Shown here piece by piece: positions 12,483 to 13,006 of a stretch of DNA of 64,000 nt (position 1 is its first letter; each line of letters begins with the position of its first letter). The translations under genes and the position numbers were made by a program. The notes beneath the pieces are model-generated. The model saw nothing but the letters and a program-made list of their open reading frames with translations. It was not told where the DNA came from and did not search any database. The DNA is from Eledone cirrhosa (taxonomy: Eukaryota): positions 169,756,001-169,820,000 of the forward strand of contig OZ024742.1 of the NCBI GenBank assembly GCA_964016885.1. Reading direction: 5' to 3'.

Positions 12483-13006
12483 ATATCCAGTGCTTTTATC
12501 GAGAATGACACAGCTAGAGACTTATAGAATACTTAGCTGTGTACAGGAACTGGTTTGAAAGAGCGGTTGCTGGTCCGGCAGAAATTAGAAATTGGAATAA
12601 ATGCTCTGAAATAGCGATATATATGTGAATATAGACATAGAATATTCGAAAATATTCTGTATGTTTATAATAAACATTTTGAAGACCTAATCGCTATAGA
12701 ATAGAATACGTCACGTATTACAATTAGATTCTCGATTACTTCCCTTGCTTTTATCGAGAATCTAATTGTAATACGTGACGTATTCTATTCTATAGCGATT
12801 AGGTCTTCAAAATGTTTATTATAAACATACAGAATATTTTCGAATATTCTATGTCTATATTCACATATATATCGCTATTTCAGAGCATTTATTCCAATTT
12901 CTAATTTCTGCCGGACCGGCAACCGCTCTTTCAAACCAGTTCCTGTACACAGCTAAGTATTCTATAAGTCTCTAGCTGTGTCATTCTCGATAAAAGCACT
13001 GGATAT

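Follow-up and report, generated by a model that had tools for sequence, protein, structure and literature searches.

The non-coding 310-nt repeat that lies head to head within a (TA)n tract of the window, the 64,000-nt stretch of Eledone cirrhosa DNA analysed here, was probably (at roughly 65%) inserted by a Penelope-type enzyme priming a separate cDNA from each target strand on the same RNA, and the turn of the array at a predicted ribozyme cut site would then have arisen by chance. Back-to-back insertions of this repeat number in the thousands, the window copy being one of them.

Structure of the window copy and its family

The features of the locus are summarized in Table 1, in which unit position 1 is defined as the first base after the predicted cut behind GTA. 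The base preceding 12734 broke the unit register, so that the sense arm starts exactly at unit position 1, right after GTA, and the antisense arm, read from 12736 to 12307, ran from unit position 20 through position 139 of the next unit. The preliminary description, which had set the start of the sense arm on the predicted GUA/GAU cut and the antisense arm about 20 nt into the monomer with GAT common to both arms, was thus exact in these respects. The units of the tail arm matched at 100%, and the short-end arm carried a single mismatch, G>A at 12571 in a CCGG context. The GC content of 12001–14000 was 30.5%, and 12307–13830 was overlapped by no stop-to-stop frame of at least 150 aa, indicating no coding capacity. 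The locus displayed sequence features of an animal non-LTR retrozyme, namely a tandem unit within 170–400 nt, low GC, a type I hammerhead-like motif in each unit and a non-coding sequence.

Table 1. Features of the two-armed insertion and its flanks (window coordinates).
Feature	Position	Strand	Description
Left target microsatellite	12155..12306	.	(TA)n-type
Short-end arm	12307..12736	-	430 nt; outer end in ACATATATAT, then (TA)n
Hammerhead-like motif, antisense arm	12440..12482	-	motif scan and fold
Shared GAT, head-to-head junction	12734..12736	.	3-nt microhomology of both arms; single occurrence in genome
Tail arm	12734..13830	+	1097 nt; 310-nt unit repeated 3.5 times without change, from the predicted cut (unit position 1) to 165-167
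Type I hammerhead-like motif	13007..13049	+	motif scan and fold; predicted cut between 13043 and 13044
Hammerhead-like motif, copy 2	13317..13359	+	motif scan and fold
Hammerhead-like motif, copy 3	13627..13669	+	motif scan and fold
One-sided tail, unit 140-167	13803..13830	+	at outer end of tail arm, missing from that of the other arm
Right target microsatellite	13831..13917	.	(TA)n-type

The junction is known from the assembly (no reads of the raw runs X23 and X24 matched the unit), and its arms are near-identical inverted copies, as an assembly or fold-back read artefact would leave them. The arms nevertheless differ in length and end at two distinct family sites in different flanks, like those of more than 100 other loci, and in the contigs of a further run, the short end likewise abuts TA (nine loose ends at 13182), making such an artefact extremely improbable.

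Around the same TA tracts, three tRNA-headed SINE-like repeat copies were recognized by eye (11500–11745, 11818–12150, and 13975–14300), two of them with their tails facing the retrozyme; these tracts thus appear as a hot spot of nested insertion. Elsewhere in the window, a satellite with units of 21/24 nt fills 7 kb (55973–63100).

The first 25 nt of the unit gave 14,222 exact matches in the 3.0-Gb genome, from which about 3,200 arms were estimated at 4.5 units per arm. Counted genome-wide, the outer ends numbered 1,315 for the tail end and, in a single spelling, 557 for the short end. Near-identical copies are widespread: 20 public runs (17 studies, 18 organism codes) each contain over half of the words sampled from 12330–13100, with the match confirmed for X1 and X5. 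For the analyses below, arms were mapped against the unit in 140 regions of 7 kb, all on contig C1 and mostly picked by one known outer end. With complex junctions, duplicates, 25 single-arm loci, and loci chosen for starting at the cut excluded from the junction counts, 111 simple head-to-head junctions were obtained besides that of the window, giving 112.

Two sampled loci (L050 and L101, G000:C1:97461506-97476481) are apparently parts of a single array. One of its arms measures about 14 kb, and variants recur along it, partly at a 10-unit spacing, which suggests later duplication. Sister non-coding families with the retrozyme end motif (unit ~126–154) were noticed at L071:4299-4550, L116:1730-2100, L121:3236-3900, and L177:2430-2870, and at least the first of these has the same head-to-head layout with its tail end in TA. 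The end motif common to the sister families is probably what the enzyme recognizes.

Outer ends, arm lengths, and junctions

In 103 of the 104 closed two-armed copies, the window included, one outer end lay at unit position 130–139 and the other at about 165; the remaining copy ended elsewhere, and two like ends were never found in one closed copy. Eight further two-armed copies, which ran beyond the fetched region, stand outside this set. The rule held for either anchor, with the tail opposite in 27/27 closed copies picked by the short end and the short end opposite in 57/57 picked by the tail. The insertion targets were (TA)n, in which target-site duplications are difficult to recognize and with which the short end, itself an AT run, merges. 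Closed single-arm insertions carried the short end in 15 cases and the tail end in five; since both ends are found on single-arm insertions, each behaves as a start.

Among the 103 copies other than the window, the short-end arm was the longer in 42 and the tail arm in 61, the excess being greater than one unit in 29 and 47 of these, respectively. Either arm may therefore be longer, and neither can regularly have been copied from the cDNA of the other. The inner ends were scattered along the unit. Junctions without inserted bases showed microhomology of at least 2 nt in 48 of 82 cases against 15 expected, extra bases were present at 29 of the 111 junctions, and one junction, 84/309, was seen twice with the arm roles swapped (L269 and L271). 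These complementary outer ends, variable arm lengths, microhomologies, and swapped roles all support priming of both arms on the two target strands. The positive correlation between arm lengths (Spearman 0.30, p 0.002; mean shorter/longer ratio 0.53) counts against this reading, being unexpected for fully independent cDNAs and expected for a self-copy.

The likeness to the inverted 5′ pLTR of Penelope-like elements (PLEs), to which the preliminary description had pointed, was borne out: the inverted 5′-truncated copy was present at all 112 simple junctions, the tail was restricted to one end in the closed copies obeying the rule above, and the target was (TA)n.

The predicted cut site and the turning point

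The hammerhead-like motif, which closes each unit, reads GTAGTC CTGATGA ... GAAAC GC GTA / GATTAC, the last slash marking the predicted cut. Helix I is formed by GTAGTC and GATTAC (6 bp), the core consists of CTGATGA and GAAA, helix II has 4 bp, and a short helix III carries a palindromic ACGCGT loop. This geometry equals the metazoan type I hammerhead form described in PMC4209133, except that the usual G10.1–C11.1 pair is missing, and no Rfam match to the motif was obtained at the gathering score. All 13 core positions were invariant among 112 copies, which is weak evidence alone with about 1.3 variant sites expected; variation was highest at the free core position and in loop II. Of 9 stem variants, 8 kept or gained pairing (expected, 19% of all changes or 50% of transitions). 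From its sequence, an RNA of the 310-nt unit is predicted to bear a self-cutting motif in each unit.

The earlier interpretation of the window junction held that the reverse transcriptase (RT) reached the 5′ end of a ribozyme-cut RNA and that the cDNA folded back through 3 bp to prime its own second strand. The window geometry fits this course exactly, its short-end arm being shorter than its tail arm, and to that extent tells against two separate primings; moreover, self-copying accounts for correlated arm lengths and for haplotypes shared between arms, and self-priming, on an antisense template, has been published as a hypothesis for Penelope inversions (PMC3846280). The signature predicted from fold-back, namely a turn at the cut with the second arm starting just downstream and never longer, was nevertheless absent from the family. 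None of the 222 arm starts of the 111 other inversions lay on the cut; within 1, 3, and 10 nt of it, there were 1, 5, and 8 starts against 2.1, 5.0, and 15.0 expected, respectively. Arm-to-arm offsets were uniform (KS p 0.81), offsets of at most 25 nt occurring at chance level (18/111 vs 18.3), and the forced 3-bp hairpin has a DNA energy of +1.8 kcal/mol. When two non-unit bases were required before the tested position, the genome-wide counts were four at position 1, nine at the control position 66, and 25 at position 20. Fold-back also leaves the fixed stop of the second strand and the often longer second arm unexplained, and it is thus very improbable.

Position 20 (window 12753), at which the short-end arm of the window starts, was the most used of these three positions, at about threefold the control, and sits inside a 16-bp stem extending the hammerhead. 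A cluster of arm starts at unit 12–22 (18/222 vs 7.9 expected) was dismissed at a scan test p of 0.14 and was unreplicated in 20 later regions (1/30 ends).

A different role for cleavage would be that both strands were primed as proposed here, with the tail-arm cDNA of the window reaching the 5′ end of a ribozyme-cut RNA and running off it before the two cDNAs paired. A pattern keeping TA before the cut (position 309) had 15 matches, 11 of the 12 inspected being true breaks, one a duplicate; together with the four at position 1, against about six expected per position from the ~3,200 arms, these leave room for a slight excess near the cut, and the invariant core and the pairing-preserving stem variants point the same way. 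Breaks mapped to 309, however, gain from TA microhomology, all such breaks together make up less than 1% of arms, and the sampled starts within 10 nt of the cut were fewer than expected, as given above; run-off at a cut end is accordingly quite unlikely. Among the 14 independent arms starting at 309–1, at most 2 nt from the cut (four and ten in two sets), one (L273) had a partner at hairpin distance, and fold-back cannot give L273, because its would-be second strand exceeds its would-be first.

For a single junction with two arm ends and a few ambiguous bases, the chance of falling on the cut is estimated at about 1–3%, and the window junction was picked post hoc out of the estimated ~3,200 arms. 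Its turning point on the predicted cut is therefore likely a coincidence. Given the lack of enrichment at the cut and the uniform offsets, the window junction provides no evidence for cleavage in vivo. The preliminary description was thus not supported in its reading of ribozyme activity from the junction, in its expected enrichment of 5′ ends and inversion points at GUA/GAUUAC, the breakpoints of other copies being random, or in its fold-back course. Taken alone, this junction carries no information on ribozyme activity.

A probable common template for both arms

When sites not fixed within an arm were skipped, 74 of 75 copies showed full agreement of fixed variants between their two arms, as against 629 of 5549 comparisons (11%) between copies. 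This sharing of haplotypes led to rejection of the alternative that two RNAs are used, one per enzyme subunit. Variants private to a single copy were often fixed through all units of both arms, which suggests a one-unit (circular) template.

In L115, the haplotype switched after two units in both arms, and in L048, a single-unit variant was present in both; relative to the outer ends, the positions in the two arms differed by exactly 26 nt in each case. This exact register places both starts within the same unit of the same template, and L115 suggests a multimer rather than a monomer circle as its template. Mosaic variants were found at seven loci, probably representing six arrays, among 120 long arms, in which variants at every second or third unit, indicative of a dimer or trimer circle, were absent. 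Mirrored single-unit variants were confined to two elements (10 of 74 counts, both directions), and the 64 unmirrored counts are as expected from later mutation. The scarcity of mirrored variants and a shared variant out of register in L097 weigh against twin priming, and gene conversion between arms could add to the haplotype sharing.

The shared haplotypes, the switch in both arms of L115, the uniform offsets, and the correlated lengths are also covered by a scheme in which priming occurs once, at either fixed site, the RT jumps at random to the new cDNA or to antisense RNA, and the second strand is cut or captured at the other site; endonuclease resolution has indeed been suggested for the tail (PMC8557442). 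Such a scheme requires both sites to act as start and stop, always complementarily, whereas single arms end at either site. Furthermore, L048 has its variant in register although its short-end arm extends 51 nt past the tail arm, so that neither arm is contained in the other. A template jump is thus considered unlikely, and priming of two cDNAs on a common RNA is preferred.

Coding Penelope-like elements in the genome

Matches to GIY-YIG were abundant in the genome, and several long frames carried an RT, five of eight with a GIY-YIG domain behind it. One copy (L206:2273-8312), a young, near full-length Penelope-like element with a non-canonical hammerhead-like core, has a stop-to-stop frame of 938 aa that encodes an RT and, at its C terminus, GIY-YIG; the frame is flanked by 1-kb repeats of 98% identity. 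The family of this copy shows the CxxC linker that marks Neptune and Nematis (PMC8557442). Its insertions lie in (TA)n and end at two sites separated by about 64 nt, the short end numbering 2,973.

This coding family obeys the same end rule as the retrozyme. In 40 regions anchored on its short end, a motif scan placed the tail end on the opposite side in 31 and never showed a second short end, in support of twin priming; the other nine, mapped by BLAST, comprised three with the tail end, two ending at −14/−50, two single arms, and two unplaced. In 13 of the 40, the turn of both arms fell close to −201 to −220, which is some 70 nt upstream of a hammerhead-like motif and not on it. This turn is likely a fixed RNA start, which fits twin priming or fold-back, and such turning at nearly one point is therefore a reservation against the former. 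No ORF element sharing the retrozyme tail sequence was found in 50 GIY-YIG loci, which is a further point against the proposal, and the coding family and the retrozyme have no tail sequence in common.

In L226–L265, which belong to the L206 family, many mirror stubs of 300–380 bp have turning points at −201 to −220, counted from the tail end, and junctions that differ slightly, suggesting that synthesis on a short RNA with a fixed 5′ end reached this end from both sides. In another group at these loci, the turn lies in an AT palindrome near −114.

Proposed mechanism

The two-arm layout, the end rule, the scattered inner ends, the microhomology or extra bases at the junctions, and the shared haplotype were observed directly, and we infer the subsequent steps from these genomic scars. 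Both target strands would be nicked in (TA)n, whereupon one target 3′ end would prime at the tail site (CCAAU) and the other at a site 26–35 nt upstream of it, at which the RNA sequence AUAUAUAU might pair with a TA primer. After that, each cDNA would travel round a circle or along a multimer and halt at a random place, and the two cDNA 3′ ends would be joined by 1–5 nt of complementarity (ATC/GAT in the window) or with inserted bases. A single arm would arise when only one primer is extended far.

In twin priming of LINE-1, two target strands prime on one RNA and yield a head-to-head inversion joined at microhomology; the second primer anneals at variable internal sites, and a minority of insertions are affected. 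In the present family, by contrast, the second site is fixed, lies 26–35 nt from the first, and is used in most insertions. No statement of twin priming for Penelope-like elements was found in the literature searched, outside which lay supplements and most subscription papers.

Relation to known systems

The insertion layout is already known, and the element belongs to a known kind. Like the animal non-LTR retrozymes (PMC7229834; bioRxiv 10.64898/2026.07.22.740005), it has a tandem non-coding unit of about 300 nt with low GC, a type I hammerhead motif per unit, and co-occurring Penelope-like elements, which have been named as candidate mobilizers of retrozymes (PMC7229834). The word “inverted” is absent from the searched text of PMC7229834, as are “orientation” and “tail” from that of bioRxiv 10.64898/2026.07.22.740005. 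The latter discusses local tandem amplification, whereas the dispersed two-armed insertions with fixed outer ends found here point to multimers made at insertion.

Endonuclease-bearing PLEs (PMC8557442, PMC3846280) resemble the retrozyme in their inverted 5′-truncated copy and microsatellite targets, and have a tail of 30–40 bp, often on one end only, comparable to the ~26–35 nt of the retrozyme tail; they differ from it in that the retrozyme is non-coding and both of its arms are multimers. The same insertion layout has been described in Drosophila (PMC2377424). The origin of the inverted ends and the one-sided tail of PLEs is described as unresolved in PMC8557442 and PMC3846280. Those papers suggest resolution by the endonuclease or self-priming with antisense as the template, whereas the counts obtained here favour two primings on one sense RNA.

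In vitro, the protein of PAc, a Poseidon element of the green anole, starts reverse transcription at two internal sites bounding the tail and cuts and extends both strands of an AT-rich target (PMC11167929), in support of the proposed mechanism. In the same system, ribozyme cutting was dispensable and no reads ended at the cut. The two strands showed no difference in start site there, whereas the genome shows strictly one site per strand in each two-armed insertion, a discrepancy that weighs against our reading.

Implications

More generally, and at what we regard as even odds, Penelope-like retrotransposition may be twin-primed by rule, with one complex nicking both strands and using two fixed, staggered starts on one RNA, one site per strand, and with both cDNAs able to round a ribozyme-made circle. 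The inverted pLTR and the one-sided tail would then be one footprint, and retrozyme arrays would be born multimeric. In this young and very abundant family, counts separate the models by random inner ends, fixed complementary outer ends, the greater length of either arm, and a common template, so that a large natural sample makes the mechanism of Penelope inversion testable. The spread of the retrozyme is thereby tied to a Penelope-type enzyme more directly than by co-occurrence.
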